Positions 1 through 40,841 of a stretch of DNA of 64,000 bases are shown piece by piece (the first letter of the stretch is position 1; each line of letters opens with the position of its first letter). The position numbers and the translations under genes are program-made. The notes below the pieces were generated by a model. The model was not told the origin of the DNA, ran no database searches, and was given only the letters and a program-made list of their open reading frames with translations. The stretch spans positions 80,103 to 144,102 of the forward strand of contig MWEK01000001.1 of assembly GCA_002070955.1 (NCBI GenBank), written 5' to 3'. The stretch is from Planctomycetes bacterium ADurb.Bin069. GTDB lineage: Bacteria > Planctomycetota > UBA8108 > UBA8890 > UBA8898.

Positions 1-53
1 AGGGGGGTGTCGTCGTGCGCGATGTCGACTCCGAGGTTCTTCAGGAGGTCGTC

Positions 54-1166
54 GTGCTGCGGTTCTTAAGAAATCTGTTTCGCCGCAAGGATACCGTCGA
101 GTATCTGCGCGAGGCATGGCGGACAAAGCCGTCGATTGCGGTGGCTGAGAAGCTGTTTCACCGTTTGCAGGACACCGGCTCCCCCGGCGCCGCGCTTGCA
201 TTCATCAGGGAGGCGGGCCGCGCCTATCCTCACGCGCAGCGTCTCCGCGACCTGCAGCACCAAGCGTTGCGCGTGCGCAGCTCCGAAGAGGTCAAATCGC
301 TTCGCGCCGCGCTGGCCGCCAACCCGCGTCCCGAGATCTACGCGCGTCTCGGCGAGCTCTATCGCTACCTCGGACATTGCGAGGAGGCCCTGGAGATCGC
401 GCGCGAGGGTATCGCCCGCTATCCCCAGAGCGGCGGCAATTACCTCGCCATCGGCCTCGTGCACTACAGCCGCTTCCTAAAGACATCCTCGGCGCACGAT
501 GGGCTTCAGACCGAAGCCTGCCTGCGCCAGGCGTATGCCCTGGACAGCGCGAGCTTCAAGTCGCTGTATTATCTCGCATGCTTGTACGTGTACGCCGGCG
601 CAAAGCCAATGGCGTCCGAGTGCATTGCGCGGCTGGCGGAGCTGATGCCGGGCGACAACCGGGTCGCCGATCTCGCGCAGCGCGCCCAAGCGCTGCCCGA
701 TTCTCCCCAAGGCACTGCAGCGGACTACTTCAGGCTCCACGAGGCGCGCGCCATGGAGGCGGCGGCCGGCGCACCCGGACGCGCCGAGCCCTTCGCCGGC
801 CTGCGGCCCGGCAAGCCGCTGAATGATCGCCTGGCGAGGATCGCCGCGCTCCCCGGGGTCGACGGCGTGTGTGTGCTCGATCGATACGGCGCCAGGATCG
901 CCGGCGCCGGCCGGAGCGGCGACACGGCGTGCAACGAGGCTGCCCTCCAAGGCATGCTCGAGGGCGCCCGCGTCAACGCCCGCCGGATGTCCATCGGCAA
1001 CTTCAGCCGCGCGGTCCTACGGTCGAAGGACTGGCAGGTATTCTTGTACGAACTCGAGCCTTACGGGTTGGCCGTCATGGGAGGGCGCACGGCCCGCCAA
1101 GACCTGGTGCAGCGCAAGGTCACCGAATTCATCGAAGAATGCCTCTGTGAGGAGCAGGGAGCATGA
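54..1166 (+). CDS. TPR-like helical-repeat protein with C-terminal Roadblock/LC7 (MglB-like) domain
   Basis: Track ORF 15..1166. An in-frame GTG at 54 lies 5 nt after AGGAGG (43-48). The N-terminal ~250 aa are helical/TPR-like (YARLGELYRYLGHCEEALEIAREGIARYP). The last ~110 aa (GVDGVCVLDRYGARIAG...WQVFLYELEPYGLAVMGG) have the Roadblock alpha-beta pattern. The stop overlaps the next start (ATGA at 1163-1166). Confidence 0.6.
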   Translation: MLRFLRNLFRRKDTVEYLREAWRTKPSIAVAEKLFHRLQDTGSPGAALAFIREAGRAYPHAQRLRDLQHQALRVRSSEEVKSLRAALAANPRPEIYARLGELYRYLGHCEEALEIAREGIARYPQSGGNYLAIGLVHYSRFLKTSSAHDGLQTEACLRQAYALDSASFKSLYYLACLYVYAGAKPMASECIARLAELMPGDNRVADLAQRAQALPDSPQGTAADYFRLHEARAMEAAAGAPGRAEPFAGLRPGKPLNDRLARIAALPGVDGVCVLDRYGARIAGAGRSGDTACNEAALQGMLEGARVNARRMSIGNFSRAVLRSKDWQVFLYELEPYGLAVMGGRTARQDLVQRKVTEFIEECLCEEQGA

Positions 1167-1543
1167 AGCGAATCCTGAAAGAACTCAATCGGACGGCGGG
1201 CATTCGCGGCAGCATGGTGATGACGCAAGACGGCATCATGGTCGCGGCCGCTCTGGGACCGGATCTTGTGGAAGACGTCGTCGCGGCGCTGGCGTCCGCC
1301 CTGCTGACGACGGTGAAACGGTCGTTCAATCAGATCGCGGCGGGAGAAAGCCTGTCCGAGCTGGTTCTGACCGCCACGGACGGGAAAATGGTCTTCCTCG
1401 ATCTGGGGAATGCCTATTTGGTGGTCGTCGCGAAGCGCGATCTCGCGCTCGCCTCGACGATGGTGGAGATTCAAAGCGCCGCGCACCGCATCAAGAATCG
1501 ACGCGCTTCGACGGTGCAACGCCAGACCGCGGCGGCGCGGTGA
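1163..1543 (+). CDS. Roadblock/LC7 domain protein (second MglB-like paralogue)
   Basis: 126 aa. LNRTAGIRGSMVMTQDGIMVAAAL...LVLTATDGKMVFLDLGNAYLVVVAKRD is a typical single Roadblock fold. Translationally coupled to the upstream gene. Confidence 0.75.
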   Translation: MKRILKELNRTAGIRGSMVMTQDGIMVAAALGPDLVEDVVAALASALLTTVKRSFNQIAAGESLSELVLTATDGKMVFLDLGNAYLVVVAKRDLALASTMVEIQSAAHRIKNRRASTVQRQTAAAR

Positions 1544-1580
1544 GGCGGAGACGCATACACAAGTACCGGAGGATACAGTA

Positions 1581-2522
1581 GTGCAGATCAACTTCGCGCT
1601 CAGGGAGGTCAACTGCAAGATCGTCTACTACGGCCCCGGCTTGAGCGGCAAGACGACGAACCTCGAGGTCATTCACTCCAAGGCGCCCGCCACCAACCGC
1701 GGAGAGTTGACTAGCATTGCCACCGAGGGGGACCGGACGCTCTTCTTCGACTTCCTGCCGCTGAATCTCGGCAATGTCTCCGGCATGAAGACCAAGTTTC
1801 AGTTGTACACCGTGCCCGGCCAGGTCTTCTACAACTCCACCCGCAAGCTCGTCCTTCAGGGGGTCGACGGCGTGGTGTTCGTGGCCGACTCGCGGCGGGG
1901 CAAAATCGAGGAGAACATCGAGAGCCTCGAGAACCTTAAGGAGAACATGGCGGAGTACGGCCTCACGCTCCAGACGACGCCGTTTGTCATCCAGTACAAC
2001 AAGCGCGATCTGGAGGACATTCACACCGTCGAGGAGCTGGACCGGGCGCTCAACAGCGTGAAAGCCCCGACCGTCGAGGCCTCGGCGCTCACCGGCGAGG
2101 GCGTGTTCCCGACGCTCAAGAAGCTCGCCGGCATGGTGCTCGAGAATCTCAACCAACGCCAGGCGTCCAGCGCCATGCGGCCCCGCATGCTGGCCAAAGA
2201 ACCCGTCGCCGCCGGCGTCCGCGAGGAGGCCCCCGCGGCTCCGCCGGCCCCACGCCGCGTTGTGCGCGCGGCGGCTGAGCCGCCGGCGGTCGTCAAGGAG
2301 CAAGTAGCGACGGGTGTGAAGCCGGTCGAGCGGCGAGCGCCGCGCGTGGCGCCGCGGCGGGAGAGCGTTTCGAGGCGTGCGGCGCCGCCGCCGAAGGCGC
2401 AGGCCAAGCGGCCCGCCGGGGGAAATCGCGCGCTGCTCTACATCGTGGTGACGTTGGTGGTGCTTGGCGGCGCGGCCGCCGCGCTGTATTACACCGGGGT
2501 GTTAGGGAGACTCTTGGGTTAG
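1581..2522 (+). CDS. mglA: MglA-family Ras-like GTPase with C-terminal Pro/Ala-rich linker and transmembrane tail
   Basis: In-frame GTG at 1581 inside track ORF 1410..2522. The protein starts VQINFALREVNCKIVYYGPGLSGKTTN (P-loop). It has TVPGQ switch II (the MglA hallmark replacing DxxGQ) and NKRD. It is collinear with Myxococcus MglA as I recall it. About 120 extra C-terminal residues end in the hydrophobic helix ALLYIVVTLVVLGGAAAALYYTGVL. Confidence 0.85.
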   Translation: MQINFALREVNCKIVYYGPGLSGKTTNLEVIHSKAPATNRGELTSIATEGDRTLFFDFLPLNLGNVSGMKTKFQLYTVPGQVFYNSTRKLVLQGVDGVVFVADSRRGKIEENIESLENLKENMAEYGLTLQTTPFVIQYNKRDLEDIHTVEELDRALNSVKAPTVEASALTGEGVFPTLKKLAGMVLENLNQRQASSAMRPRMLAKEPVAAGVREEAPAAPPAPRRVVRAAAEPPAVVKEQVATGVKPVERRAPRVAPRRESVSRRAAPPPKAQAKRPAGGNRALLYIVVTLVVLGGAAAALYYTGVLGRLLG

Positions 2523-2594
2523 GGGGGCGCGACCCGCGCCGCGCCGGCGCGAGGGCGTTCGCCGTCCCGTTGGTGGAAACGAAGGAGGCCAGCC

Positions 2595-3104
2595 ATTAGT
2601 CACGACAGCGACAACATTCGCGAGAAGCGTCTCGTCTTCTACAAGGACGACATCGATCGCATCAACGAAGTCCTGCAGGAGTTCCTGACCTTGTCGGACT
2701 CCAAGTGCATCATGCTCATCGACCGGGAAGGCTACATGGTCACCAAGACCGGCCATACCGAGGACTTCGACATGCAGGCGATCTCGGCCCTCGTTGCGGG
2801 CAGCTACGCCGCCACGCGGGAAATGGCGCGCCTTCTGGGCGAAGAGGAGTTCTCGGTCCTCTTTCATCAGGGCAAGCGCGACAGCATTCAACTGACGCTG
2901 GTCGGGGACCGCACGATCCTTGCCACCGTCTTCGATGAGCGCACGACGATCGGGATGGTGCGCCTCTATGCGAAGGAGGCCAGCCAGAAGCTCGACAAGC
3001 TCTTCGAGGACATCAGCCAGCGCGAGGACGACGGCTCCGAACACATCGGCGCGGATTTCGCCAAAACCGCGAAGGATCAGATGGATGCCGTGTTCTGCGA
3101 CTGA
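2595..3104 (+). CDS. mglB: MglB orthologue (Roadblock/LC7 GTPase-activating protein); start probably non-canonical ATT
   Basis: The track ORF starts at TTG 2691, but the upstream in-frame sequence LVFYKDDIDRINEVLQEFLTLSDSKCIMLIDREG matches the MglB N-terminal helix/strand (M. xanthus LVMYEEEFTKINAVCDRL...VVFLVDKNG). The frame is open from 2523 with no ATG/GTG/TTG. ATT at 2595 lies 6 nt after GGAGG (2584-2588). Confidence 0.75.
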   Translation: MSHDSDNIREKRLVFYKDDIDRINEVLQEFLTLSDSKCIMLIDREGYMVTKTGHTEDFDMQAISALVAGSYAATREMARLLGEEEFSVLFHQGKRDSIQLTLVGDRTILATVFDERTTIGMVRLYAKEASQKLDKLFEDISQREDDGSEHIGADFAKTAKDQMDAVFCD

Positions 3105-3164
3105 GCCGGGGAGTGCGCTCCGCCCTCCGCGCCTGACTGCCGCCGCCTTCGCGGCCGGCGCGTC

Positions 3165-3590
3165 TCAACGCGCCGAATCCGCTGGGGCGCGCGTCGAGCG
3201 CTCGTGCATGCTGTTGGCAAGCTCAGCGGCGTCGGCGAGGAGCAGCAGCGCCTCGCCGACACCCTTGAGGAGACCGTATGCGGCGAGCGCGGCGAACACC
3301 CACGCAAGCACGCGGGCGAGGGCCGCGAGCCGCGCTCCTTCGCCGCGCAGCATGACGACCGCCTCCAAGGCGGCGCCCACAGCGCCGACGGCCGCCGCGC
3401 ACAAGGCTAGCGCCAAAATGAACGCGGCCACGTGGCGAAAACGCGCGTAGCGCGCTATGCGTCGGACGCCCAGGTCCTCGGGCGCAGGAACGGACTCCCG
3501 GCCGTTTTCGGGGCCGGAAAGCCGCTCCAGCAACGCAAGCCGTTTCAAATCCCGGTCTTCACGGCGACGTACGAAGCTCATTCGGTCCAC
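3165..3590 (-). CDS. hypothetical small membrane protein (two predicted hydrophobic helices)
   Basis: 141-aa ORF directly downstream of and co-directional with the HEAT lipoprotein gene. Hydrophobic stretches VAAFILALALCAAAVGAVGAAL and LARVLAWVFAALAAYGLL. No family recognised. Confidence 0.45.
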   Translation of the reverse strand: MDRMSFVRRREDRDLKRLALLERLSGPENGRESVPAPEDLGVRRIARYARFRHVAAFILALALCAAAVGAVGAALEAVVMLRGEGARLAALARVLAWVFAALAAYGLLKGVGEALLLLADAAELANSMHERSTRAPADSAR

Positions 3591-3662
3591 ACACGAACCG
3601 CCGCCTGTCGTCTGTTGCCGCAGCGCGGTCGCGACCTGTCATTCCGGGACGGCCTGAAGCCC

Positions 3663-5933
3663 CTATCTGGACGCCGCATCCAGGCTTGAAACCACCGCAG
3701 CCGGCGCCGCGGTCTTGCTCAGCGTCCGCGCCGCCTCGACTCTGACCCCCACTTCCTCGTCGGCGAGGCAAACCTTCATTAGGTCGTCGAAATCCGCCAC
3801 GTCGGCCCTCACGGCGCTCTCTTCGAGACGCAGCCGCATCGCGATCTCCCCCAGCGCACGGATGGAGGCGATGCGCACGGGCACCGAGCCGCCCGTCTTG
3901 GCCGCCGCTCCCAACGCCTTGAGGACGCTCCTGTCGCCGATGGCGCCCAGACACGCCGCCGCGGGCACCCGCACCGCCTCGGGTCGGTTCGGATCCTCCA
4001 CCGTGTCCGCCAGACCTCTCTTCGCTCCGCCGAGGTCGTACGGCACGCGCGCCGCGATCCACGCCAGCAGGGTTTCGGCCGCCTTCTGGGCGTACTCCTC
4101 GCCCTTCGCGCGGGTGTCCTGCGCTTCCTTCACGATCGGGTCCAGCACTGTGGTGCGCAACGCGCTCGCCGTAATATCCTCGGCGACGACGAACACCTTC
4201 TGTTCGTCCCGTTGGTACAGATCGCGGCTTTCGGCCACCTTCGCCCCGGGCGACACGACGATGACGGGCGCGTCGGCGACGCCCCGGGACTTCCGGATGT
4301 ATCCGATCACCGCAGACACCCCCAAATCCTCCAAGTTCCGGTCCAGGAAGATCACATGCTTGGGCGGAAACGACACGGCCTCCAGCAGCCCTCGATCCGC
4401 TCTGTCGACCACGATCGGCATGAATCCGGCTTCGTTCAGGAGCCCGCCGAAGTAGGTTCGCACGATCTCATCAGGACTGATGACCAGCGCGACCCGGACG
4501 CCCGGGTGGGCAATGGCAAGGGCGAAATTGGTTACGATCTCCTTGGCCTGGGCTTCTTCGACGCGCGGATTGAGGGCCGCCAGGGCCACCGAGGCCTCGA
4601 AGCGCACGCGCTGCTCCCGCGCCTTCAGCGCCGCCTCCAGCGCCGCCGCGACCTTCGCGTTGGCCCCGGCGGCGGGGCTGTACGCGCGGATCTCGTCGAT
4701 CAGCTTGACAACGGGCGCCGGCGTGCCTCCGAACTCCGCCATGTCCTTGAGGGCGCACACGAGCGCCGCCGCCATGGCTTCGAGCCCCATGCGGCGCACG
4801 GACTGATCCAGTTCGTGGATCCGCGCCGTCTGCCCCTGCAACAGGGTCAGTCGGGCCTCATCCGCTCCCTGCTGCTTGGCGAGGGCCAGATTCTCTTCGT
4901 AAAGCTGAACTTGTGCGGCGCGGTTGCTGACGAACCAGGCCTCGGCCGGCGCCTCGGGTTTCGCCCCCGTCTTCATCGCGCGCACGAGCAACAGGTCGGC
5001 GATCACCCGCCGTACCTGGAACGGTTCGACCTCCTCGCCCACGAGCAAGCCGCCTTCCATGCGCCACACGTACGGCCCGCACTGCGGGCGCGGCAGTTGG
5101 TTGGCACCGTGAATGAACGTCTGCGCATCGTCCAGCAGCATCCGCCACGCGGGACGCGCAGCGCCGCGTTCCCCCGTCAAGCGATCGGCGGCCGCCGCAG
5201 CGGTAGCCCGGACCACTGCGTCCCGATCCGTTTCCGCCATATACTTCAGGCTCGACGCGGCGAGGGGGTCCCCGACGCGCGCCAGGATGCCCGCGATCTC
5301 CTCCCGCACGCGGGGCGAGGGACTGTCGATCGCGGCGAGCAGCGGAATGACGGCGTCGCGACCGAGGCTTGCGAGGGCGCGAAAGGCCATCAGGCGCTCG
5401 CCGGGCTCCTGATGGTCGAGGAGCGCGACGAGGCCCGGCGCCAGGTGCCAGCCGTGGCGGTACTTCGCCTGCTGGTAGTCCCGTTCCCATGCGTTGAAGT
5501 CGTCCTTGGAGGCGAGCAGCGCGGCGATTGCCTTTTTGATCTCGTCTTGATCCCGGCTGAAGGCCTTCTCCAACTCCGTCGCCACGTTCAGGATCTGCCG
5601 GACCACCAGGGTCAACTCGCGCCCTTCCGCCGTTCCGTCCTCTTTGCTCTTGACGAGCATTTCGACCAGATCCCTGCGGACGCTCCAGGTTCGATTCAGC
5701 TCATCCTCCCGGATCTCGTCAAGCAGCTTCACGACCTCTTGGGCCTCGGGGCTAAGGGTCTGTGCCTCGCGGAGCAGCCTGACGGCCTCGGCGTTATTGT
5801 GCTGCTTAAAGGCCGCAATCGCCCGGGTGAGCAGGGAGGAGAAATCATCCTCAGCGCCGCATGCCGTCAAGGAGGCACACAAGCACGCTGCGGCCGCACC
5901 TAGAAAACACGCCCTCACAGCTCCCATTGCCAT
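3663..5933 (-). CDS. HEAT-repeat lipoprotein with central degenerate receiver-like (CheY-fold-like) domain
   Basis: 756 aa. Signal peptide plus lipobox (AAACLCASLTAC|GAEDD). HEAT/PBS-lyase-like repeats (DAVIPLLAAIDSPSPRVREEIAGILARVGD; VPAAACLGAIGDRSVLKALG...VRIASIRALGEIA). The central segment VRVALVISPDE...HVIFLDRNLEDLG...APVIVVSPG resembles a receiver fold but lacks the acidic pair. Confidence 0.7.
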   Translation of the reverse strand: MAMGAVRACFLGAAAACLCASLTACGAEDDFSSLLTRAIAAFKQHNNAEAVRLLREAQTLSPEAQEVVKLLDEIREDELNRTWSVRRDLVEMLVKSKEDGTAEGRELTLVVRQILNVATELEKAFSRDQDEIKKAIAALLASKDDFNAWERDYQQAKYRHGWHLAPGLVALLDHQEPGERLMAFRALASLGRDAVIPLLAAIDSPSPRVREEIAGILARVGDPLAASSLKYMAETDRDAVVRATAAAAADRLTGERGAARPAWRMLLDDAQTFIHGANQLPRPQCGPYVWRMEGGLLVGEEVEPFQVRRVIADLLLVRAMKTGAKPEAPAEAWFVSNRAAQVQLYEENLALAKQQGADEARLTLLQGQTARIHELDQSVRRMGLEAMAAALVCALKDMAEFGGTPAPVVKLIDEIRAYSPAAGANAKVAAALEAALKAREQRVRFEASVALAALNPRVEEAQAKEIVTNFALAIAHPGVRVALVISPDEIVRTYFGGLLNEAGFMPIVVDRADRGLLEAVSFPPKHVIFLDRNLEDLGVSAVIGYIRKSRGVADAPVIVVSPGAKVAESRDLYQRDEQKVFVVAEDITASALRTTVLDPIVKEAQDTRAKGEEYAQKAAETLLAWIAARVPYDLGGAKRGLADTVEDPNRPEAVRVPAAACLGAIGDRSVLKALGAAAKTGGSVPVRIASIRALGEIAMRLRLEESAVRADVADFDDLMKVCLADEEVGVRVEAARTLSKTAAPAAVVSSLDAASR

Positions 5934-8102: not shown

Positions 8103-8564
8103 TCAGTGCGTGCCGCGCTGAGACCGGTAGCAGTCCTGGCAGTACACGGGTCTGTCGGGCGCCGGCTCGAAGGGAACCTGCGCGACCTTTCCGCACGACG
8201 TGCACGTGATCTGCGTCATCTTCCGGGGCGCTTGCTCGCGGCGCCGAGGAGCACCGCGGCCATAGCCGCCGCCCCCGCCCCCGCCATAGCCGCCGCCGCC
8301 GCCGCCGCCATAGCCGCCGCCGCCATAGCCACCGCCGCCATAGCCACCGCCGCCGCCGCCGTAACCGCCGCCCCCACCACCGCCGCCGCCGCCGAAACGG
8401 CGCGGCGCCTGCCGGTGCTGCGTCCTGCGATTCTGGCGGCACTCAGGACAGCGTTTCGGCTCGGAGAAATTGCGGCTTGCGTAACGCTCCTGCTCCTCCG
8501 CTGAGAAGACGAAGGTCTGGTTGCAATCGCTGCACACCAACTCGACATCGGAATACTCGGACAT
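8103..8564 (-). CDS. double zinc-ribbon protein with glycine/tyrosine-rich low-complexity linker (CxxC-x17-CxxC family-like)
   Basis: 153 aa. N-terminal ribbon CSDCNQTFVFSAEEQERYASRNFSEPKRCPEC. About 45 aa of (G)nY repeats. C-terminal CTSCGKVAQVPFEPAPDRPVYCQDC (CxxC-x17-CxxC). Confidence 0.8.
   Translation of the reverse strand: MSEYSDVELVCSDCNQTFVFSAEEQERYASRNFSEPKRCPECRQNRRTQHRQAPRRFGGGGGGGGGGYGGGGGGYGGGGYGGGGYGGGGGGGYGGGGGGGYGRGAPRRREQAPRKMTQITCTSCGKVAQVPFEPAPDRPVYCQDCYRSQRGTH
8261..8394 (-). repeat. in-frame GGC/GGT-rich, TAT-punctuated repeat tract encoding the (G)nY linker
   Basis: The plus strand shows repeated CCATAGCCGCCGCC(GCC)n units. Coding, not intergenic. Confidence 0.8.
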
Positions 8565-8842: not shown

Positions 8843-9214
8843 CTACGGCGCGCTCGCCGGATCTTCCGGACGCAGCACGTACCTGTAGTCGCTTTCAAGC
8901 CTGGCGCTGAAGAAATACGGAATGATTCCGGGGAGCAGCCAAAAGAGGGACTCGTCGGCGCGGTACGAACTCTCCACGACGACGTTTTTGAGCGGCTTGT
9001 ACCCCGGTTTCTCGACCGTGACGTGGTAGACCTTCGGAAGGCCCGAACGGGATTGATAGGTCGTGGGTGTCTTTCCGATCGGCACGCCGTTGACGCTGAT
9101 GTCGGCATCGTCCGGTTCAGTGGTGAAGCGGGTGGACTGCGCGCAGCCGCTGCCGATCGCCGCGGCTGCCAGAAGTCCGATGGCCGCCCGCGCCAGAAAA
9201 GAGGTTCGAAACAT
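8843..9214 (-). CDS. PEGA-domain putative lipoprotein
   Basis: 123 aa. Signal peptide ending AAAIGSGC. ADISVNGVPIGKTPTTY...YHVTVEKPGYKP is a PEGA-like motif. Confidence 0.7.
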   Translation of the reverse strand: MFRTSFLARAAIGLLAAAAIGSGCAQSTRFTTEPDDADISVNGVPIGKTPTTYQSRSGLPKVYHVTVEKPGYKPLKNVVVESSYRADESLFWLLPGIIPYFFSARLESDYRYVLRPEDPASAP

Positions 9215-10624: not shown

Positions 10625-11248
10625 ATGACCCCGCTCGCCGCGGGCTTCGCCGTCCTGGGCGCCTATGTGCTGGGCGGCGTCCCTTTCAGCCTCCTCCTGG
10701 GATTCGTGCTCGGGCGCGTCGATATCCGCGCGCGGGGCAGCGGCAACGCCGGCGCCACGAACCTCGGCCGCGTGTGCGGCTGGCGCTACTTCCCCCTCGC
10801 CTTCGCGCTGGACTTCGGAAAAGGCTTCGCGCCCCTCGTTCTCGCCATGCCCGCCCTCGCGCAAGCGAGGATGGAGCATTCCTGGGTTCTCGCGGCGACG
10901 GTGATGCTGGCCTTGGCGCCTGTCGCGGGCCATATCTACAGCCCTTTCCTCAAGTTCCGCGGCGGCAAGGGCGTGGCGACTACGACCGGGGCGCTCGCCG
11001 CCCTGTTGCCCCTCGAGACCGCGGTCGCCGCCGCCGCCTGGTTCGCGGCGTTCGCCTTGACGCGCACCGTGGGCGTCGCCTCGTCGGTCGCCGCAGCGGC
11101 TCTCCCTCCCGCGTTCTTCCTTTGCCGCGCCCGACAGGCCGACGAAACGGCCTTCGTGGGCGGACTCTGCGTGCTTCTGTCCGCGCTGGTTTTGTACCGC
11201 CACCGGTCCAACCTCAGGGCGTATTTCAGGCGGCGAAGGTCCCGCTGA
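10625..11248 (+). CDS. plsY: glycerol-3-phosphate acyltransferase PlsY
   Basis: GSGNAGATN, FLKFRGGKGVAT and several TM helices. Confidence 0.9.
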   Translation: MTPLAAGFAVLGAYVLGGVPFSLLLGFVLGRVDIRARGSGNAGATNLGRVCGWRYFPLAFALDFGKGFAPLVLAMPALAQARMEHSWVLAATVMLALAPVAGHIYSPFLKFRGGKGVATTTGALAALLPLETAVAAAAWFAAFALTRTVGVASSVAAAALPPAFFLCRARQADETAFVGGLCVLLSALVLYRHRSNLRAYFRRRRSR

Positions 11249-33103: not shown

Positions 33104-35770
33104 CTACTGACCGAAGCGCTCGATCTCCTCATGCCGGAGATCGACCAACTTCGCGGTGAGCAGGATGATCAGGCTGCGCCGCTCGCGCAGCTCGGCCTTG
33201 CGGCTCACGAGCAGGTTCAGCAGCGGGATGTCCCCGATAATCGGGATCGAGGATTGGTACATGCGCTCCTCCAGGCTCCGGAAGCCGCCCAGGAGCACCG
33301 TGCCGCCGTCCGGGACGGTGACCGACGTCCACGTGCGCTGGATGGACATTTTCGGCAGCCCGATCGGGACCTGCATGGCGGCGGCCATGACCGTGCCGAG
33401 GTTAATGAGCACGGTGGAAATCACGCCGCCTATCAGGGTCGCGAGCGTCGGCTGGACGTCGATGGTGATGTACTTGCGGTCCGCGCTCACGCTCGGGCGC
33501 ACATCCAGCACCACGCCTTCCTCGTTCACGTGCACCACCGGGTCCGCCACTTCCGTAAGGGTGTACGTCGTGCCGCCGGACACCAGCTCGTAATCGGCGA
33601 TATACGATCGCTGTGTGATCACCGACACGTACACGCGCTGGCCGTTGTGCGCCGTGACCTCGGGCGCGATCACCGACTTGACCCCGCTCTCCTCTTGAAC
33701 CGCGCGCACGATGGCGTTGATCTGGTACGGATCCACCATGGTCAACTGCAAGCTCAAGCCGCTCAGTCCGCCGGGACCGCCGAAAATACGGTCGCCGCGA
33801 ATCAGGCTCGCGTAGCCGTCCAGGGTGTTCTGCAGGCGCCCGACCAACTCGGGGGGCTTGCCGTCCGCCTTTCTTCTCGCGATCGCTTCGATACTGTCGG
33901 TGAATCCCGGATCCTGCCCGCCCGTTCGGCTGTCGTGGATCCGGCCGTGGTACATGTTGAACCCGGTCGAGCTGCGCTGGCTGAGGTTGCGGTAGTCGAT
34001 GCCGATATCCTCCAGAAAATCGCTGGTGATATCCACGAAGCGCGCCTTGACCACCACGAAGAGATCGGAGTCCTGCCGCAGTTCCTCCAGCACGCGGGCC
34101 ACCCTCGCGTGCACCTCGGGGCTGGCTTCAACGAGGAGCTGCCCGCGGTGGATCTCGATGCGGTTGATCTCCCCGTCCCAGACGGAATCGCCGCCCGTGC
34201 TCTCTTGGACCAGCTTCTGAAGCTGCTCGGGCTCGAGCGTTTTGGATTCCTCGCCCTCGCTGAACTGGAAGCCCGTGCCGCCGGGCCCGCCGCCGGACTC
34301 GGATTCCTCGTCGGGAGATCTGATCTCGAGGCGCGGGCCGGGGAAATCCCTGATCTTGCTCAGGATGTCCGTCACCGTGTAGATCTTGAGGATGGCCAGG
34401 CCTCGCGCCCTCTCAGGCACCGTGATCGTCAGGACGTTGTTCCTGAAGGTGTAGGCCAGCCCCGTATTGAGCATCATCAGATCAAGCGCATCCTCGAGCT
34501 TCATCTGCGTGAGGTTGAGCTTGACCTTGGTCTCCTCGGGATCCACGTTCTTGTCGATGTGAATGTTGATCCCGGTGATCTTCTTAATGTAATCGATGGC
34601 ATCGGCGAGGGGCTTGTTGTCGAAGTCGATGGTGATCCGCGCGGTCGCCAGGCGCCGTTTGATCTCCCTGACCTCCTCGGACTCCTCGATGACGCCGATT
34701 TGCACGTCGGCCTCGCGCGCCCTGATAATGTCCCAGCGCTCCTCGCCGGGAAACTCGAAAACGCTCGAGGGGGGTTTGGCCGCATCCGCGAGCCCTTCCC
34801 AGGTCAGCTTCGCGTGCTCCTTGAGCGCCGCGTCGTGCTCCTGCTCCCAAAGGGTCCTGTCCTTCTTTCTGGAGTTCTTGAGAAGGGCCCGCGCCTGGAT
34901 CTGGCGCGGATTCTCCTTCAGGACCACTTCGCAGATCTGCATGCACTGCGTGTAATCCTGGCGGTGATAAGCTTCGCTCGCGGCCTCGACCAGCACCCTG
35001 ATACGCTCCCTCTTCTGTTGGTCGCGGAAGGCCGCATCCTTCGCGATCGCCGCCCGGATCGCCTCCTCTTGCTGTTCACGGGTTTCGCCCGCGCGCCGCC
35101 GCAGCAGATCGTTCGTCTCGCGCAGGAGCTCCTCCAGGCGCCTCTGGCGCCCTTGCGTCTCGGCCGAGGCCTCGAACAAAGCCAGGCGGGCTTTCCCCTG
35201 CTGGAGCATCAACTGGGCTTCCTGGAGCTGGTGCTCCCCCATGGCCTTCGCGGCATCCTCGATGAGGCGGTCGATTTCGTTCAGGCGCGCCTCGCGCTCG
35301 ACCTTCAATTCGGCGGTCCAGTCCTGCATGAAACTCCCGACGGACGCTTCGCGCTGGCCGAGCATCGTCTCGCACCGGCGCAGCTTGCTGAACGCTTCGT
35401 CGTTCTCGGGGTCGGCTTTGCGCGCCTGCTCGTAGAACTCCATTGCGGCCTTGTAATCCAACTCATCGTACTTTTTATCGCCGCGGAGGACGTACTGCGC
35501 CGCCAGTTGGCGGCTGATGCTCTTCTTCTCTTGGATCGCTTGGAGGATCTCGGCTTCGCCCTCCGCGGACCTTTCGGGCACGGCCGGCGCGGGCATGGGG
35601 GCTGCGGCGGGCGTCTCGGTCTCCCGGCGGCCCGGCTTCTCGTCGGTCTGCGCCGCCGCCGAACCCTCCTTCGAGATGTTGGTCCGCGCCGGGGGCGTCT
35701 TCTGCGGCTGCAGGCAGCCGGCGCCCGCGACGAGGGCTCCGATCGTAAGTACGGCAGTGAACCTTCTCAT
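33104..35770 (-). CDS. secretin-family outer-membrane channel (paralogue 2) with long N-terminal TPR/coiled-coil region
   Basis: ATG at 35770 follows AAGGAG. Signal peptide MRRFTAVLTIGALVAGAGC. N-domain RITIDFDNKPLADAIDYIKK. C-terminal secretin signature VPDGGTVLLGGF...IPIIGDIPLLNLLVSRK. Confidence 0.85.
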   Translation of the reverse strand: MRRFTAVLTIGALVAGAGCLQPQKTPPARTNISKEGSAAAQTDEKPGRRETETPAAAPMPAPAVPERSAEGEAEILQAIQEKKSISRQLAAQYVLRGDKKYDELDYKAAMEFYEQARKADPENDEAFSKLRRCETMLGQREASVGSFMQDWTAELKVEREARLNEIDRLIEDAAKAMGEHQLQEAQLMLQQGKARLALFEASAETQGRQRRLEELLRETNDLLRRRAGETREQQEEAIRAAIAKDAAFRDQQKRERIRVLVEAASEAYHRQDYTQCMQICEVVLKENPRQIQARALLKNSRKKDRTLWEQEHDAALKEHAKLTWEGLADAAKPPSSVFEFPGEERWDIIRAREADVQIGVIEESEEVREIKRRLATARITIDFDNKPLADAIDYIKKITGINIHIDKNVDPEETKVKLNLTQMKLEDALDLMMLNTGLAYTFRNNVLTITVPERARGLAILKIYTVTDILSKIRDFPGPRLEIRSPDEESESGGGPGGTGFQFSEGEESKTLEPEQLQKLVQESTGGDSVWDGEINRIEIHRGQLLVEASPEVHARVARVLEELRQDSDLFVVVKARFVDITSDFLEDIGIDYRNLSQRSSTGFNMYHGRIHDSRTGGQDPGFTDSIEAIARRKADGKPPELVGRLQNTLDGYASLIRGDRIFGGPGGLSGLSLQLTMVDPYQINAIVRAVQEESGVKSVIAPEVTAHNGQRVYVSVITQRSYIADYELVSGGTTYTLTEVADPVVHVNEEGVVLDVRPSVSADRKYITIDVQPTLATLIGGVISTVLINLGTVMAAAMQVPIGLPKMSIQRTWTSVTVPDGGTVLLGGFRSLEERMYQSSIPIIGDIPLLNLLVSRKAELRERRSLIILLTAKLVDLRHEEIERFGQ

Positions 35771-35897
35771 GCCCGTCTCCTTTGGATTGCTTCGTCCGTT
35801 CATATGCTTCTCGCAACGGTTCGCGCGCCGCGCGGGTGTTCGCCTTCGCGCGCCGCGACGCCGCCTCGTTCCTCCCCGCCTCCTCCTTATGCCCCGC

Positions 35898-38432
35898 TTA
35901 CGGGAACGTGAGCTTCTCTTCTTCCTTGACGATCACGATGTCCGACTTGATCAACACGTACAGGCTGCTGCGCAGCCGCGACTGGCCCTGCCGCCCGAAC
36001 AAGATGTTGAGAAGCGGGATCCGCTGAAGCAGCGGGATGCCGATGCTTTTGTCCTGCTCGATCACCTTCTTCAGGCCGCCCACGAGGACGGAGCCGCCGT
36101 CGGGAATGGTGATCGTCGTCTGAATCCGCGACAGCAGAATCACGGGCAACTCGACCTGTACCATGGTGAAGCCCTGGGCGAGGCTCAAGTCCGCGTACTT
36201 CGAATCGATATGCTTGGCCGTGGTGGGATTCACCTCAAGGATCACGAACTTGCGGTCGTGCGTCACCGTGGGGCGGATCTCGAGCAGCGCTCCCACACGA
36301 AACGAGCCGATCAGCGGGTTGATCACCGGGCTGACGCCGGTCTGGTTGACATCGACGTCCTTGATATACGCGATCTGGTCGATCACCATGGTGTGCGCCG
36401 TCTGGGAATCGAAGGCGAGGACGCGGGGGGCGCCCAGCGAGAGCATCTTCTGCTTCTTCTGGACCATGGAAAGGATGCCCTCGAGCTGGTAGTCCTCCAG
36501 CTTGTTGAACTGCAGCGCCATACCGCCCTGGGCCGTGATGTTGAACGGCGTGATTTCGGTGCCCATGACGCCGCTGTAGTCGGAAATGTTGGCGCCGATC
36601 ATCCCGTACCGCTCGCGCCGGTCGAGGAACACATACCCCGACGCCAGCGAGGTTCCCAGGCCGTTCACATCGGGAATCGGATACTCCGGCGTGCTCTCCA
36701 CCGTCCCGCCGATGTTGACGCCGATCTCCTCCAGCAGGTTGTCCTGGATGTCGATGAAACGGGCCTCGCTCGCCACCAGGACCCCGGACAGCTTGCGCAA
36801 GCTCGCCAGCAGGTCGCTGATCTTGCGATGATTCTCCAGGGACGTCCTGACGACAAGCTTGCCGGTTTGCAGCTCGGCGGTGCCGTTCTTGTCGTCCCCG
36901 CCGAGGATGCGTTTGCGAATCAGCTCGACCAACTGCTCGCCGGGAAGCCCGGTTCTGGCCGTTTCAGTCTGCTCCACATCCAGCGTGACGGCCCCGCCCT
37001 GCTCCTTCCCGCCCGCGAGGCTGACCGACAAGTCCGGCGCCGGATAGTCCGGATGCTGATTAGCGATGTCCTCGACGGAGTAGAAGGCCAGATGCATTTT
37101 CTCGGTCAGCGAGCTTCTCGGCCCGATAACCACGGCGCCGTTCTGAATCTGGTAGCCGTAGCCTTCGCCCACGGACTCCAGCACGATGTCCAGCACGTTC
37201 TTGAGCATGAGCCCCTGGACTTCCGGCAGGTTGACCTTCAGGTCCTCGGACTCCATGGCCTCGCGGGCGGCCTTGTTGGGCACGAAGCTGATGCCCGCGC
37301 CGACGCCCGGCCCCGCCAGTTGGCCCAGGTAATCGAGCACCTCTTGGAGCGGACGATCCTCGAAGCTGATCCGCGGAATCCTGGTGGTCTCCAGGCTTCT
37401 GCGCACTTCGCGGTTCGCGATGGGTTCTTCCGCCGCGACCTGCTCCTCGAGGGAGATGCGCTCCTCGCCCAGCTTTTCCCAAACCCTGCGCGGCGGAAAC
37501 TGGAAGATGTGGTGGTAGGACACCGTCGTCTCCATGATGCCGCGCAAGACGAGATCCCAGTTCCTCCGGGTCTCGCGCTCGATCTTGTCCATGGTGAACA
37601 GGTGCCGCAGATACCGCGCCCGGGCGCGGATGGCCTGGGCCTCGGCGTCGCGGGGATCGATCTCGAGCACCAGCAATGCCTGCTGCTCCGCCTTGTCGAA
37701 CCGGTTCTCCTGGAGGGCCTCCTCGGCCTGGGTCTTGTACAGTTTGATGCGGTTCTCGATGTACACCAACTCGCGGACGCGGTCGCCCTTGACGCGATCT
37801 CTGAGATCGGCCTCCAGCCGCCGCTGCTCCTCGGCCTTCTGATCGGCCCCTTTCCGCGCGCACGTGTCCATATGCGCCCGCGCGGCCTTGACCAGATCGG
37901 GCATGTTCAGGCTCCAGGGATAATGGCTGTCAATCTCCACCACGCGGGAGAATTTCTCGAGGGCCTGCTCGTACTTATTCTGGGCCATCAAGGCCTCGCC
38001 ATCGGCAAAGAGCCGCTTGAGTTGGGCCTGCGCCTGCTCGACGAGCAGGACTTGGTCATCTTCGATCTTCCGGATGGTCTCCCGCCGCTCGCCGACGAGG
38101 CGCCCCAAGAGGAACTGCACCTCGTCCAGCTCGACCTGCGCGGCGCTCAGCGTCGGATCCAGTCGGAGCGCCTCCTGGAGCTCCTTCTCCGCGAGTCCGT
38201 ATCGGAGCTTGTCCTTCAGCTCGCGAGCTTTTTCCAGGTGCCTGCGGGCGGTTTCCCGGCGCACCTCCACCGCCAACTTGGTCTCCGCGCTCACCGCCGG
38301 AATGTCGGTCGGCGCCGCGGGGTCGGGCGCCGCCTGCGCGACGGCGCTCCAGGCGAGCGCCGCCGCCAGCGCGATCGCCCGCCCGCCCGTCGGAAAGAAT
38401 CTTCCTCCGCCCAGAAGCTCATGTGCGTTCAT
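35898..38432 (-). CDS. secretin-family outer-membrane channel (paralogue 1) with long N-terminal TPR/coiled-coil region
   Basis: ATG at 38432. Signal-like AIALAAALAWSAVAQA. IPRISFEDRPLQEVLDYLGQ. C-terminal IPDGGSVLVGGL...IPLLQRIPLLNILFGRQ. Confidence 0.85.
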   Translation of the reverse strand: MNAHELLGGGRFFPTGGRAIALAAALAWSAVAQAAPDPAAPTDIPAVSAETKLAVEVRRETARRHLEKARELKDKLRYGLAEKELQEALRLDPTLSAAQVELDEVQFLLGRLVGERRETIRKIEDDQVLLVEQAQAQLKRLFADGEALMAQNKYEQALEKFSRVVEIDSHYPWSLNMPDLVKAARAHMDTCARKGADQKAEEQRRLEADLRDRVKGDRVRELVYIENRIKLYKTQAEEALQENRFDKAEQQALLVLEIDPRDAEAQAIRARARYLRHLFTMDKIERETRRNWDLVLRGIMETTVSYHHIFQFPPRRVWEKLGEERISLEEQVAAEEPIANREVRRSLETTRIPRISFEDRPLQEVLDYLGQLAGPGVGAGISFVPNKAAREAMESEDLKVNLPEVQGLMLKNVLDIVLESVGEGYGYQIQNGAVVIGPRSSLTEKMHLAFYSVEDIANQHPDYPAPDLSVSLAGGKEQGGAVTLDVEQTETARTGLPGEQLVELIRKRILGGDDKNGTAELQTGKLVVRTSLENHRKISDLLASLRKLSGVLVASEARFIDIQDNLLEEIGVNIGGTVESTPEYPIPDVNGLGTSLASGYVFLDRRERYGMIGANISDYSGVMGTEITPFNITAQGGMALQFNKLEDYQLEGILSMVQKKQKMLSLGAPRVLAFDSQTAHTMVIDQIAYIKDVDVNQTGVSPVINPLIGSFRVGALLEIRPTVTHDRKFVILEVNPTTAKHIDSKYADLSLAQGFTMVQVELPVILLSRIQTTITIPDGGSVLVGGLKKVIEQDKSIGIPLLQRIPLLNILFGRQGQSRLRSSLYVLIKSDIVIVKEEEKLTFP

Positions 38433-38518
38433 CGTCGCAACCTCTCTCCGGGACACGCGCCTCAAGAGCCCGTGCCATGCCGCTGTCTTCGCATTGGCGC
38501 CACAGGCGCGCTCTCCTT

Positions 38519-39757
38519 TTACCTGAAGGGACCGCCGCCGGCATCGTCCTCGGCGGCCCCGCCCGCTTCATCCTCCGCCGGCTCCTTCTCGGCTCCCGCC
38601 GGCTCCTCGGCCGGAGGCTCGTCGCCGGCCTCCCGGTCGGGCCCGGGCGCCTCGGAAGCCGCCTCCGCCGGAGGCGTTTCCTCCGGCGTCAAGGTCTCTT
38701 CGCCCTCCTCCTCCTGCGGCGCCGCGGGCAGCTCCCAGGCTTTGGGACACTCGATCGATTCCGGCACCCACACCCCCTGCGGAAGCTGGATCTCCCTGCG
38801 CGTGTCGATGTCCTTCAGCACCGCCACAAGGCCCTTCTCTCCCTGCTTGATGACGTTCAGGTAGTACCTCGTGCGCGGCAGGAGGTCCTTGTCCGCGTCC
38901 GGTTTGCGCATCAGTCCGAGCAGCTCTTCGCGCTTGATCATGGGCTCGGAGACGGGCGCGCCCGCCGCGTAGTCGTAGGCGTCGACTTTGAAGTACCCTT
39001 CTCCCGCGCCGGAAAGATCATCAGCGATCTTTCCCTGGACGAACATCACCCGCAGATCATCGGGGATGACGTAGCTGCCAAGATCGGCCTCGGGCGGCGC
39101 CGGCTCCCCGCTCGTTTTCGTGGGCCCCGAATCCGCCCGCCACTTCGATTTGCTCCGAGTCGCGGTGGTCGTCACCCGATAGGTGTAGCTTGAGCCCGCC
39201 TTCACATCGGCATCCACGCACGTGTAGACCTCCGTGCCATCCACATGGGGGATGGTCGCAACCACCCGCCACGCGGCGGCGCCGGCGGCGCGGCGTTCAA
39301 CCCGGGCCGTCGCGGCGCTGACCTCGCTCAGCTCGCCGAACCTGAAGGTGACCGTGGCGACGGGTTTCTTCTTCTCCGCATCCCGGGTTATGGCAACGCT
39401 GGTGATGGCGGGCTCGCCGTGCACGGAGTCTAAAGTCGCCGCACGGCTGTAGATGCGCACGACGGCCGGCTGAACTTCCATGGCGAAGGCCGTCCACGCC
39501 TCCTTCGGTATCGACGCTTTGTCAGAGCGCCGCGTGATGGCCTCCCTCGGATCGGGAGGGGCCTCCGCGGGCAGCAGCTCGGCATCCTTTGCGTGGTCGT
39601 TGATCAACTTCAGATGCTGCGCGATGCGGTCCTGGCTGGTCTTGATCTTGTCCTCGCCCGTCATGGTGACGGCGATCATAGCGACGATGATCGCCGCCAC
39701 GATGCCGAACGCGAGCCGGTCGCAATGGGCTGTAAGTCGCTCCTTAACCGACGCCAT
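38519..39757 (-). CDS. membrane-anchored hypothetical protein with Fn3-like domain and acidic Pro/Glu-rich tail (occupies the PilP position)
   Basis: 412 aa. N-terminal TM FGIVAAIIVAMIAVTM. A beta-rich segment ends in AGSSYTYRV. The C-terminal ~70 aa are E/P/A-rich. The call is positional only. Confidence 0.5.
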   Translation of the reverse strand: MASVKERLTAHCDRLAFGIVAAIIVAMIAVTMTGEDKIKTSQDRIAQHLKLINDHAKDAELLPAEAPPDPREAITRRSDKASIPKEAWTAFAMEVQPAVVRIYSRAATLDSVHGEPAITSVAITRDAEKKKPVATVTFRFGELSEVSAATARVERRAAGAAAWRVVATIPHVDGTEVYTCVDADVKAGSSYTYRVTTTATRSKSKWRADSGPTKTSGEPAPPEADLGSYVIPDDLRVMFVQGKIADDLSGAGEGYFKVDAYDYAAGAPVSEPMIKREELLGLMRKPDADKDLLPRTRYYLNVIKQGEKGLVAVLKDIDTRREIQLPQGVWVPESIECPKAWELPAAPQEEEGEETLTPEETPPAEAASEAPGPDREAGDEPPAEEPAGAEKEPAEDEAGGAAEDDAGGGPFR

Positions 39758-39779
39758 GCTTGCTCCTCACGCTCCTGCG

Positions 39780-40835
39780 TTACTGGGCGAATCCTTTGTA
39801 TTTCAACACGCTCAGGGTGAGCCGCATCGTGGCCGTGGGCAGCTTCAGCTCGAAGTCCAACGGCGCCCGCTTCGCATCGTCCAGCCTCGGGAACGGCTCC
39901 TCCGCCTTGTAGGACGCCTTGAGCAGCCGATCCTTCTGCTTGGCCAGCACACACTCCTCGACGACGAAGAACACCGGGTCATCGGCATCCGCGGCGCGCA
40001 GTTCCAAGGCGTGCAGGAACGAACCGAGGTCTTCGAACCGAATCTCGCCGGCCGCCGTCAACCGCACGCGCTCGTACAGGTCGCGCGCGTCGTACTCGGG
40101 CACGACGGCGGCCTCCGGCGTTTTGGGCGCGGCCGCGCCCCTTCTCCCGGTCCTGGCGGGGGGCGGCGGCTTGGATCCCGCCGGGGCCGACGCCTTCGGT
40201 TTCTCCTCGGCCGCCCTGGTCCCCTTCTTCTTCTCGAAAACGACCGACGTCAGTCCGCCCCACCCAGCCTCGGTCGCCGCCGTGACGAGCGCCGTCGTGA
40301 TGCGGCACATCTGCGCCGCCGCGATCAGGTCGGCTTCGTTGCTCGAGATCGTCGGGCTCAACGAAATCTTGGACTGCGACGCCTCGGGCGCCGCGGCCGC
40401 GTGGGCCGGATACACGCGCTTCACGTACTCGGCGCGCACATCGGAGTACTTCCGGTTCAGATCGTCCAGCGCCGTATTGAACGCGGAGCCGAACGCCGCG
40501 TCCTCATGCGCCGTGAACGTTTCGCCGCCCTTGACAAGCTGCAGGCGCGCGAGCTTCTCGGCCCGTTCGGCGTAGAACCGCTCGACGTCCGCAAGAATCT
40601 TCCGCAGCGTCTCCTGGAGGTCCGTGTCGGCCTCGAGTTTACGCTTCGTGGGAAGATCCTCGGGTTTCCGCTTGGCGTAGCCGGCCAGCACGCTTTCGTT
40701 CTTCGAGATCTCGCGCTGCAGGCTGTGATACTTGCTGATGCCCCAGCTCCAGGTGACGAAGTAGGCGAAGGCTCCGATCGCGGCGAGCATGGCGATCACG
40801 CCGACCAGGAATCCGTTCTTCTTCAAGCTCTCCAT
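39780..40835 (-). CDS. membrane-anchored coiled-coil protein, PilO-like / Amuc_1100-like by architecture
   Basis: 351 aa. N-terminal TM FLVGVIAMLAAIGAFAYFV, then a coiled coil, a Pro/Ala/Lys linker and a C-terminal alpha/beta domain ending TMRLTLSVLKYKGF. The layout resembles my recollection of Akkermansia Amuc_1100. Not verified. Confidence 0.45.
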   Translation of the reverse strand: MESLKKNGFLVGVIAMLAAIGAFAYFVTWSWGISKYHSLQREISKNESVLAGYAKRKPEDLPTKRKLEADTDLQETLRKILADVERFYAERAEKLARLQLVKGGETFTAHEDAAFGSAFNTALDDLNRKYSDVRAEYVKRVYPAHAAAAPEASQSKISLSPTISSNEADLIAAAQMCRITTALVTAATEAGWGGLTSVVFEKKKGTRAAEEKPKASAPAGSKPPPPARTGRRGAAAPKTPEAAVVPEYDARDLYERVRLTAAGEIRFEDLGSFLHALELRAADADDPVFFVVEECVLAKQKDRLLKASYKAEEPFPRLDDAKRAPLDFELKLPTATMRLTLSVLKYKGFAQ

Positions 40836-40841
40836 GACGAC

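Follow-up and report, generated by a model that had tools for sequence, protein, structure and literature searches.

A predicted membrane-anchored MglA GTPase encoded with MglB and two further Roadblock proteins in an uncultured planctomycete

Introduction

To our knowledge, all mechanistic models of the Ras-like GTPase MglA come from Myxococcus, Thermus, and Bdellovibrio, and describe a protein that is small and soluble and diffuses to the cell poles. A different form of the protein is encoded at positions 54-3104 of a 64,000-nt stretch of Planctomycetes bacterium ADurb.Bin069 (assembly GCA_002070955.1, contig MWEK01000001.1, positions 80,103 to 144,102), which is referred to here in its full length as the window. 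There, an MglA-type GTPase of 313 aa that ends in a predicted membrane helix is encoded together with MglB and two further proteins of the Roadblock fold. The question raised by this locus is what kind of switch such a set of genes would form and what it would control. The reading favored here, given a probability of roughly 60%, is a membrane-resident MglA/MglB switch that probably controls type IV pili or another envelope machine.

MglA and MglB

The four genes are co-directional, tightly packed, and on the plus strand (Table 1). A first-pass annotation, made from the sequence alone, had described them as a tetratricopeptide repeat (TPR)-like protein ending in a Roadblock domain, a 126-aa Roadblock protein joined to it by an ATGA overlap, an MglA orthologue with the motifs GPGLSGKTT, TVPGQ, and NKRD, and an MglB orthologue. 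All four were found at the coordinates it gave, and the identifications stood, with MglA amid three proteins of the Roadblock fold. The profile search that it had proposed gave matches to the Pfam family Robl_LC7 at E 2.7e-4 (sub-threshold) for the TPR-Roadblock protein, 4.5e-11 for the small Roadblock protein, and 4.7e-10 for MglB.

The mglA gene starts at GTG 1581 after GGAGG at 1569-1573. Residues 3-192 of its product aligned without gaps to Myxococcus xanthus MglA (Protein Data Bank [PDB] 5ymx) with an E value of 6e-72 and 61% identity. The P-loop GPGLSGKTT (residues 18-26), DRT (51-53), TVPGQ (77-81), and NKRD (140-143) were located, and D51-R52-T53 aligns with the DRT at residues 52-54 of M. 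xanthus MglA, placing an intrinsic arginine finger beside the G2 threonine. The P-loop, the arginine-threonine pair, TVPGQ, and NKRD were invariant across 69 family members, and the G domain as a whole is nearly invariant in the family. GxxxxGK[ST], NKxD, TVPGQ replacing DxxGQ, and an arginine finger are the motifs of Group 1 of the MglA family, and all of them are present. Group 1 also has mglB within four genes, and here mglB follows 72 nt past the mglA stop. The size of 313 aa falls outside the single domain of 150-240 aa used for Group 1 in the reference census. Judged by its motifs, the G domain is of a catalytically complete Group-1 type, and the system is an MglA/MglB module on every sequence criterion except size.

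MglB matched M. xanthus MglB (6h5b_B) over residues 12-168 with an E value of 1e-33 and 37% identity, the C-terminal helix included. On the NCBIfam MglB model it covered positions 3-160 of 161 with 92.8 bits, which is under the curated equivalog cut-off of 200. It is predicted, with good probability, to have GTPase-activating protein (GAP) activity. The first-pass annotation had held that the locus is not the classical polarity-switch module. Both the G domain and MglB are clear orthologues of its components, and since the catalytic motifs and the MglB C-terminal helix are present, the pair would be better described as a membrane-tethered derivative of the classical module.

The start of mglB had to be moved. 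No ATG, GTG, or TTG occurs in the mglB frame between the mglA stop (2520) and TTG 2691, the start given by the open reading frame (ORF) finder, yet the alignments to MglB of Myxococcus and Thermus start 21-23 codons further upstream. A strong Shine-Dalgarno sequence, GAAGGAGG at 2581-2588, lies six bases before ATT 2595, 32 codons ahead of the TTG, which is most likely the start codon and gives a product of 169 aa. In four other planctomycete genomes, the equivalent codon is ATT, ATC, or ATA and follows a GGAGG-type Shine-Dalgarno sequence (GGGAG in locus L010), and in a fifth it is GTG. In two records, automatic gene calls leave only 137 and 121 aa of the protein. The conserved AUU-class start hints at a deliberately low synthesis of MglB, the presumed GAP, relative to MglA.

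Linker and predicted membrane anchor of MglA

The MglA extension measures 118-121 aa, depending on the G-domain end chosen, with a high content of A, R, V, and P. In residues 193-313, RALLYIVVTLVVLGGAAAALYYTGVLGRLLG comes after a stretch rich in Ala, Arg, Val, and Pro. The hydrophobic helix spans residues 283/284-308 (RALLYIVVTLVVLGGAAAALYYTGVLG), contains YYTG, an aromatic-aromatic-small-Gly motif, at 303-306, and is followed by a tail of 4-5 residues (RLLG) and the stop. In 19-residue windows the Kyte-Doolittle maximum was 2.45 at 284-302 and the next highest value, within residues 1-275, was 0.86, so that hydropathy gives no second transmembrane segment; the N-terminus is the G domain itself and carries no signal peptide. 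An AlphaFold2 (AF2) model built from 69 sequences left residues 199-282 without structure (predicted local distance difference test [pLDDT] 55-66) and placed a helix at 283-312 (pLDDT 84-94). The linker of about 90 aa has the short conserved motifs KEP (206-208) and GVKPVER (245-251, nt 2313-2333). The 15 residues preceding the helix carry a net charge of +4, and the tail carries +1.

These features, a single hydrophobic segment near the C-terminus with a positive-inside N-side, are those of a tail anchor, and MglA is very likely membrane-anchored, the membrane helix being called from hydropathy, charge bias, and AF2. From the charges flanking the helix, the G domain is predicted to be cytoplasmic, with only 4-5 residues exposed outside. 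The about 120 extra residues (linker and terminal hydrophobic helix), the tail-anchored architecture, and the departure from the soluble MglA of about 195 aa had all been proposed in the first-pass annotation and agree with these results. PEP-CTERM and LPXTG sorting signals comprise a motif, a transmembrane segment, and a basic tail on an exported protein. A signal of this type was ruled out here, as MglA lacks a signal peptide and its basic patch comes before the helix.

A search of 5.8 billion clusters was used to collect relatives, and the 119 best matches are referred to as close relatives. All 119 (309-364 aa, with overall identity down to 51%) have the basic patch, the hydrophobic segment, and the short tail. 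The uncharged span of these proteins is 19-29 residues long (median 25) and lies about 5 residues from the C-terminus. The 15 residues ahead of it have a mean net charge of +3.5, and the tail has +0.3. Linkers in the family have 86-143 residues (median 115) and are poorly conserved except for KEP and GVKP[IV]ER; a motif resembling the latter was found in 58 of 120 relatives, and the aromatic-aromatic-small-Gly motif at the helix end in 108 of 120. The cluster labels of the close relatives name only "Planctomycetes/Planctomycetota bacterium" metagenome-assembled genomes (MAGs). At source, family members are labeled "GTPase [Planctomycetota bacterium]" (MAGs) or "signal recognition particle receptor subunit beta" (automatic annotation of JGI).

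Long spurious ORFs are common at 65-70% GC, and the extension could in principle have arisen from a frameshift, a missed stop, or fusion with a small downstream gene. An assembly frameshift had been named at the outset as something that would overturn the reading. An independent assembly, contig L002, has 19 mismatches to the window in 11.9 kb, is identical in the mglB start region, and gives the same 313-aa product, 99% identical. GC content at third codon positions across the extension is 0.84, similar to that of the flanking coding sequence. Together with the 119 relatives, this rules an artefact out for practical purposes, and its probability is negligible.

Distribution and gene order

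Gene neighborhoods were surveyed at 80 loci, taken from one genome per GTDB species, with hidden Markov models (HMMs) built from the window proteins. Every Planctomycetota-labeled MglA not cut by a contig end had the transmembrane helix (28/28), and two of these carry 35-56 hydrophilic residues beyond it. Among loci of the transmembrane type with enough flank, the TPR(-Roadblock) and small Roadblock genes lay upstream in 26 of 28, mglB lay downstream in 31 of 33, and a PATAN gene lay upstream in 16 of 22. The four-gene arrangement is thus the rule in the planctomycete lineage. The worry that the arrangement would turn out to be both common and already characterized was half right: it is common across uncultured Planctomycetota and apparently uncharacterized.

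The gene order of the window recurs on contig L002 and in a planctomycete genome of 7.9 Mb whose MglA is 58% identical; both have in addition an upstream gene for a PATAN/TPR/PEGA/beta-propeller protein of about 1,050 aa. On contig L002, which is 99% identical to the window, this gene lies at 424-3564, encodes 1,046 aa (PATAN, PF14332), and ends 93 nt before the point corresponding to the window start. Since the PATAN gene is kept upstream of the four genes in most related loci, the window, on this comparison, cuts the conserved module at its upstream side. The coordinates first given for the four genes were therefore right for the window, apart from the mglB start, and too short for the conserved module, which extends 5' of the window start.

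The same module was found in Zixibacteria, Ignavibacteria, Nitrospinota, and Brocadiia, in some cases with an extra Roadblock-containing gene. The MglAs of those lineages keep the long linker and end, for example, in ..KKRGFFKRLFGIK, ..KPGFLKRLFGNK, ..KKKKKRFFLFRWFSRDKD, or ..PLFKKFKKFLDEK. The Zixibacteria tails KKRGFFKRLFGIK and KPGFLKRLFGNK nearly match the membrane-targeting sequence of Escherichia coli MinD, KGFLKRLFGG (PMC5471200). Brocadiia, Zixibacteria, and Ignavibacteria MglAs have a polybasic amphipathic C-terminal helix, whereas most Planctomycetota have a transmembrane helix. In a rough neighbor-joining tree of G domains, the transmembrane type formed one planctomycete clade with the amphipathic-helix Brocadiia nested within it. 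From these sequences, the type of anchor appears interchangeable between lineages. The strongest case for membrane attachment as the selected property comes from this exchange of a transmembrane for an amphipathic helix on a retained G domain. As a separate observation, Fibrobacter MglAs (loci L041-L072; 312-330 aa) have a third ending, ..DDEIELRPYVPKKK, their linker ending in a conserved ..DDEIELRPY[VI]PKKK motif; MglB is their only conserved neighbor.

These data also bear on whether the C-terminal helix of the window protein crosses the membrane or is a monotopic hairpin or a partner-binding or oligomerization helix. Gly and Ala are abundant in the helix (A 23%, G 15%), 68 of 119 relatives have small-xxx-small repeats, and the aromatic-aromatic-small-Gly motif with a short amphipathic tail follows in 108 of 120, which together exceeds the constraint expected of a plain anchor. 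However, the uncharged span of 19-29 residues suits one bilayer crossing, the positive-inside charge bias is strong, related lineages replace the helix with amphipathic membrane-targeting sequences, and the hydrophilic residues past the helix in two planctomycete members imply a true crossing. A non-spanning helix is decidedly unlikely.

The G domain alone was then used in an exhaustive HMMER search of cluster representatives from about 15 billion proteins, which returned 2,240 representatives at E ≤ 1e-30. The best 150 by G-domain similarity were all 244-702 aa long, although 50%-identity clustering splits variable-linker proteins and collapses short canonical ones, so that the share of long forms is overstated. 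Among the 149 newly fetched, a transmembrane helix was seen in 55, a MinD-like tail in at least 25, and another ending in about 49. The anchored form is not a curiosity, with at least 80 of the best 150 ending in a transmembrane or MinD-like helix. About one-third of the long representatives (P0173-P0287, e.g., P0235, P0252, and P0266) end without a transmembrane or amphipathic helix. Many of these share the ending ..(I/V)VLKL.I..........RRAA after 250-400 extra residues, which looks like a further uncharacterized C-terminal domain of MglA-family proteins.

The reference census of the family (Wuichet & Sogaard-Andersen 2014, PMC4316618) excluded proteins of more than 240 aa and lists no Planctomycetes among the phyla with MglA. 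It describes Group-1 members as "occasionally" near PATAN and "a small subset" as coupled to two MglB-like genes. The 240-aa cut-off accounts for the absence of long anchored MglAs, and of the phylum Planctomycetota, from the current classification. Neither a transmembrane or membrane-targeted MglA nor MglA work in Planctomycetota was found in the literature searched, which covered few subscription journals. The module is thus a widespread and apparently unstudied variant of the known MglA/MglB system.

The two further Roadblock proteins

The GTG start of the TPR-Roadblock gene lies five bases after its Shine-Dalgarno sequence (43-48), and the four closest full-length homologues are exactly 370 aa long with the N-terminus MLRFLR. 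Pfam gave TPR matches (TPR_14). An AF2 model built from eight sequences (pLDDT 81) consists of an all-helical solenoid, a brief low-confidence stretch, and an alpha-beta-beta-alpha-beta-beta-beta-alpha domain. In Foldseek this last domain matched a Streptomyces Roadblock protein, Asgard Roadblock proteins, LAMTOR2, and M. xanthus MglB; template modeling scores, normalized to the target, were 0.75 for 3kye, 0.81 for LAMTOR2 (5y3a_B), and 0.77 for MglB (6hjm). A homologue search with exact-word seeding gave 10 matches, and the HMMs built from the window proteins found the family in 62 of the 80 fetched loci.

The ATG of the small Roadblock gene overlaps the TGA of the TPR-Roadblock gene, and from this overlap the two are taken to be translationally coupled. 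The best PDB sequence matches of the small protein were Asgard Roadblock proteins (1e-6) and LAMTOR2 (2e-4), not MglB or MglC. Similarity to MglC was rejected, with no PDB match to MglC at E ≤ 1. The chances that the TPR-Roadblock and small Roadblock proteins form a heterodimer, as predicted here, are about even.

The first-pass annotation had compared this layout to the eukaryotic Rag/Ragulator arrangement. A Rag/Ragulator-like platform would report metabolic or endomembrane state from the membrane, apart from motility or polarity. With Rag/Ragulator (LAMTOR1-5) the module shares several Roadblock-fold proteins, here three, around one membrane-associated small GTPase, and the small Roadblock protein is closer in sequence to LAMTOR2 and Asgard proteins than to MglB. 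An ignavibacterial homologue of the TPR-Roadblock protein weakly matched MP1/LAMTOR3 (E 2e-3, below the cut-off), and Pfam Gtr1_RagA weakly matched the MglA G domain (E 1.4e-5). Rag GTPases are obligate heterodimers, have Roadblock domains of their own, and are anchored via lipidated LAMTOR1. The GTPase of the window, however, is an orthologue of MglA and not of Rag, has no C-terminal Roadblock domain, and has no second GTPase gene beside it in the four-gene cluster. The anchor sits on the GTPase and not on a lipidated scaffold, and no LAMTOR1-like gene is present. The structural matches to LAMTOR, MglB, and actinobacterial Roadblock proteins are equivalent, and the informative genomic associations are with pilus motor genes and PATAN. 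Such a platform is highly improbable; the defining parts are absent, and what is left of the comparison is a loose analogy with weak sequence echoes of LAMTOR2 and MP1.

Possible output and mechanism

At least 15 non-planctomycete loci (Table 1) have genes for pilB-like and pilT-like ATPases, pilC, and a PilS-like kinase on the same strand, starting no more than about 50 nt past mglB. These loci belong to Zixibacteria, Ignavibacteria, and unclassified MAGs, their MglAs have MinD-like helices, and the order is PATAN, Roadblock, MglA, MglB, and then the pil genes, often with a ComEC gene about 5.7 kb upstream. The pilus motor PilB1 of Synechocystis is bound by PATAN response regulators (bioRxiv 10.1101/2021.06.11.447907). 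MglA and SgmX are reported to stimulate pili in M. xanthus (PMC7519303), and SofG and MglA to govern pilus placement in Myxococcus (PMC4316618, PMC7519303). The occurrence of pilB, pilT, and pilC after the module elsewhere, the binding of PATAN to PilB in cyanobacteria, and the control of pili by MglA and SofG in Myxococcus make a pilus output the best-supported guess. For the organism of the window itself, a pilus-related output is put forward tentatively, at somewhat less than even odds.

Several points weigh against a membrane-resident switch of pili or the envelope. What is said of membrane insertion, topology, GAP activity, and partner contacts is prediction throughout. A specific intramembrane partner or a monotopic hairpin, instead of a plain anchor, might account for the Gly-rich helix center (LGGAAAA) and the conserved YF[ST]G tail. 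Planctomycete modules are not beside pilus motor genes, the one instance seen being a T2SSE ATPase gene about 11 kb upstream at 3 loci. All family members found come from uncultured genomes and so provide no phenotype for comparison.

A membrane-tethered polarity determinant for the planctomycete life cycle, acting on the budding pole, stalk or holdfast, or flagellum placement instead of pili, would be consistent with this lack of adjacent motor genes in Planctomycetota, with a recurring HEAT-repeat neighbor, and with the role of MglA as a general polarity GTPase in Myxococcus and Bdellovibrio (PMC4316618). Against this, no division or budding genes were linked to the module in the 80 loci, and the only recurrent functional neighbors in any lineage were pilus genes, ComEC, and the PilS-like kinase. 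Such a determinant is considered unlikely.

A PilM/secretin locus about 30 kb away had also been proposed as the regulated machine. At 33104-43037 on the minus strand, the window encodes a long PilM-like protein (731 aa), two proteins without a Pfam match, and two proteins with secretin domains, of 855 and 899 aa, of which one has TPRs and the other STN/FecR_C. Between this cluster and the module lie his genes, LarC, CutA, and other housekeeping genes, and the 25 gene families that recur most often within 10 kb of the module across the 80 loci do not include PilM or secretin families. The proposal is thus unsupported by gene order or recurrence and was set aside. No pilB, pilT, or pilC was found among the window genes scanned, and ComEC is encoded at 52841-54919.

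For the membrane-resident MglA/MglB switch, the following mechanism is proposed. A membrane-locked MglA cannot reach the poles by diffusion and would signal by recruiting partners, as Ras, Arf, and Rab do. MglA-GTP, fixed in the inner membrane, would recruit soluble effectors at the cytoplasmic face instead of relocating, the PATAN protein being the prime candidate effector, and MglB would turn it off. The TPR-Roadblock and small Roadblock proteins would form a heterodimeric platform that acts on MglA as an exchange factor, co-GAP, or scaffold, and the TPR part may bind the conserved GVKP[IV]ER motif of the linker. The module thereby offers testable candidate regulators, two extra Roadblock proteins of which one is on a TPR scaffold, and a candidate effector. 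A more far-reaching proposal, possible and on the whole doubtful, is that of a large, overlooked branch of bacterial Ras-like GTPases with a eukaryote-like layout of near-invariant G domain, hypervariable linker, and C-terminal transmembrane or MinD-like anchor, in which a LAMTOR-like Roadblock heterodimer on a TPR scaffold joins the MglB GAP. If this were true, permanent membrane residence with effector recruitment, as opposed to pole-to-pole relocation, would be a widespread mode of MglA signaling, and multi-Roadblock platforms on a membrane GTPase would predate eukaryotes.

Comparison with known systems

The closest known system is the MglA/MglB pair of Myxococcus and Thermus (5ymx, 6h5b, 3t12), with which the module shares the orthologous G domain, an adjacent mglB, and a probable link to pili. 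It differs from that pair in the extra MglA residues, the two further Roadblock proteins, and the PATAN protein, and the characterized MglA is a soluble protein of 195 aa that exchanges between poles via the cytoplasm. RomR and RomX were not seen in the 64 kb of the window. The PATAN gene beside the module recalls the PATAN-associated MglA/MglB neighborhoods described earlier (Makarova 2006; Wuichet 2014). SofG of M. xanthus, which positions PilB and PilT, is likewise a Group-1 MglA-family protein that is longer than canonical and tied to pilus motors. It has 239 aa and is an orphan not coupled to MglB (PMC4316618), and no transmembrane helix is reported for it in the literature examined. The actinobacterial conservon (CvnA-D) also combines an MglA-family GTPase with a Roadblock protein and is membrane-associated; its GTPase is a Group-2 MglA without the arginine finger, and its membrane association is through the CvnA kinase (PMC4316618). 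In contrast to the amphipathic targeting sequences of MinD and FtsA, the end of the window MglA is a full hydrophobic helix.

Eukaryotic Ras, Rho, and Rab consist of a G domain, a hypervariable region, and a C-terminal lipid anchor. The window protein likewise has a G domain, a variable linker, and a C-terminal anchor, and the sister lineages have a polybasic tail of the K-Ras type. The anchor here is a peptide helix and not a lipid, so it would not be extractable by a factor like a guanine nucleotide dissociation inhibitor, and the likeness is one of analogy only, with no homology of the tails. Signal recognition particle receptor beta (SR-beta) is a GTPase with its own transmembrane helix and a longin/Roadblock-like partner (SRX of SR-alpha), and Miro is also a tail-anchored GTPase. 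SR-beta is N-terminally anchored and of the Arf-like branch, and neither SR-beta nor Miro is bacterial. As analogies, the Ras/Rho/Rab or SR-beta layouts would seem closer than Rag/Ragulator. The module provides a bacterial comparison point for the origin of membrane-bound small-GTPase/Roadblock systems.

Gene coordinates and other genes in the window

Table 1. Coordinates of the module and of related features. Positions are those of the window unless a locus is named.
Feature	Position	Strand	Basis
TPR-Roadblock protein, 370 aa	54..1166	+	GTG after AGGAGG; homologue length; AF2 and Foldseek; Pfam TPR_14
TPR solenoid, residues 1-237	54-764	+	
Roadblock domain of the TPR-Roadblock protein, residues 254-365	813-1148	+	
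Minimal Roadblock/LC7 protein, 126 aa	1163..1543	+	Pfam Robl_LC7; ATGA overlap
MglA, 313 aa	1581..2522	+	GTG after GGAGG
MglA G domain, residues 1-192	1581..2156	+	PDB 5ymx match; motifs invariant in 69 family members
MglA linker, residues 193-282, Pro/Ala/Arg/Val-rich, predicted disordered	2157..2426	+	AF2; GC content at third codon positions
MglA C-terminal membrane anchor (predicted)	2427..2522	+	Kyte-Doolittle; AF2; conservation in relatives
mglB, 169 aa, Roadblock domain and C-terminal helix	2581..3104 including Shine-Dalgarno; probable ATT start 2595	+	
HEAT-repeat protein, 756 aa, recurrent neighbor, module membership not shown	3663..5933	-	Pfam HEAT_2, E 5e-18
mglB start regions compared	L001 ~9051-9100, L003 ~11097-11140, L004 ~5330-5375, L009, L010; window 2523-2700		
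Pilus-linked loci L032, L044, L052, L054, L056, L058, L063, L064, L070, L071, L074, L077-L080	~0.5-7 kb downstream of mglA		

A promoter and terminator consensus scan of positions 1-3800 gave no match, and such a scan is uninformative for Planctomycetota. Convergent with mglB, a 141-aa ORF with two hydrophobic helices lies at 3165-3590 on the minus strand; the near-identical contig is the one other place where it was seen. It was left out of the module and may be specific to the lineage or no gene at all. At 8103-8564 on the minus strand, a 153-aa protein with two treble-clef zinc fingers (zf_Tbcl and zf_Tbcl_2) is encoded; at L001, a more distant locus, this gene was not seen beside the module. 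GltJ of Myxococcus binds MglA-GTP through a zinc-ribbon domain (PMC11135422). At least seven planctomycete loci (L002, L003, L007-L010, and L014) have a homologue of the HEAT-repeat protein downstream of the module. In the window, the N-terminus of this protein resembles that of a lipoprotein (..CASLTAC), and there is a weak receiver-like match to NCBIfam EpsW (E 2.5e-4, below the cut-off).

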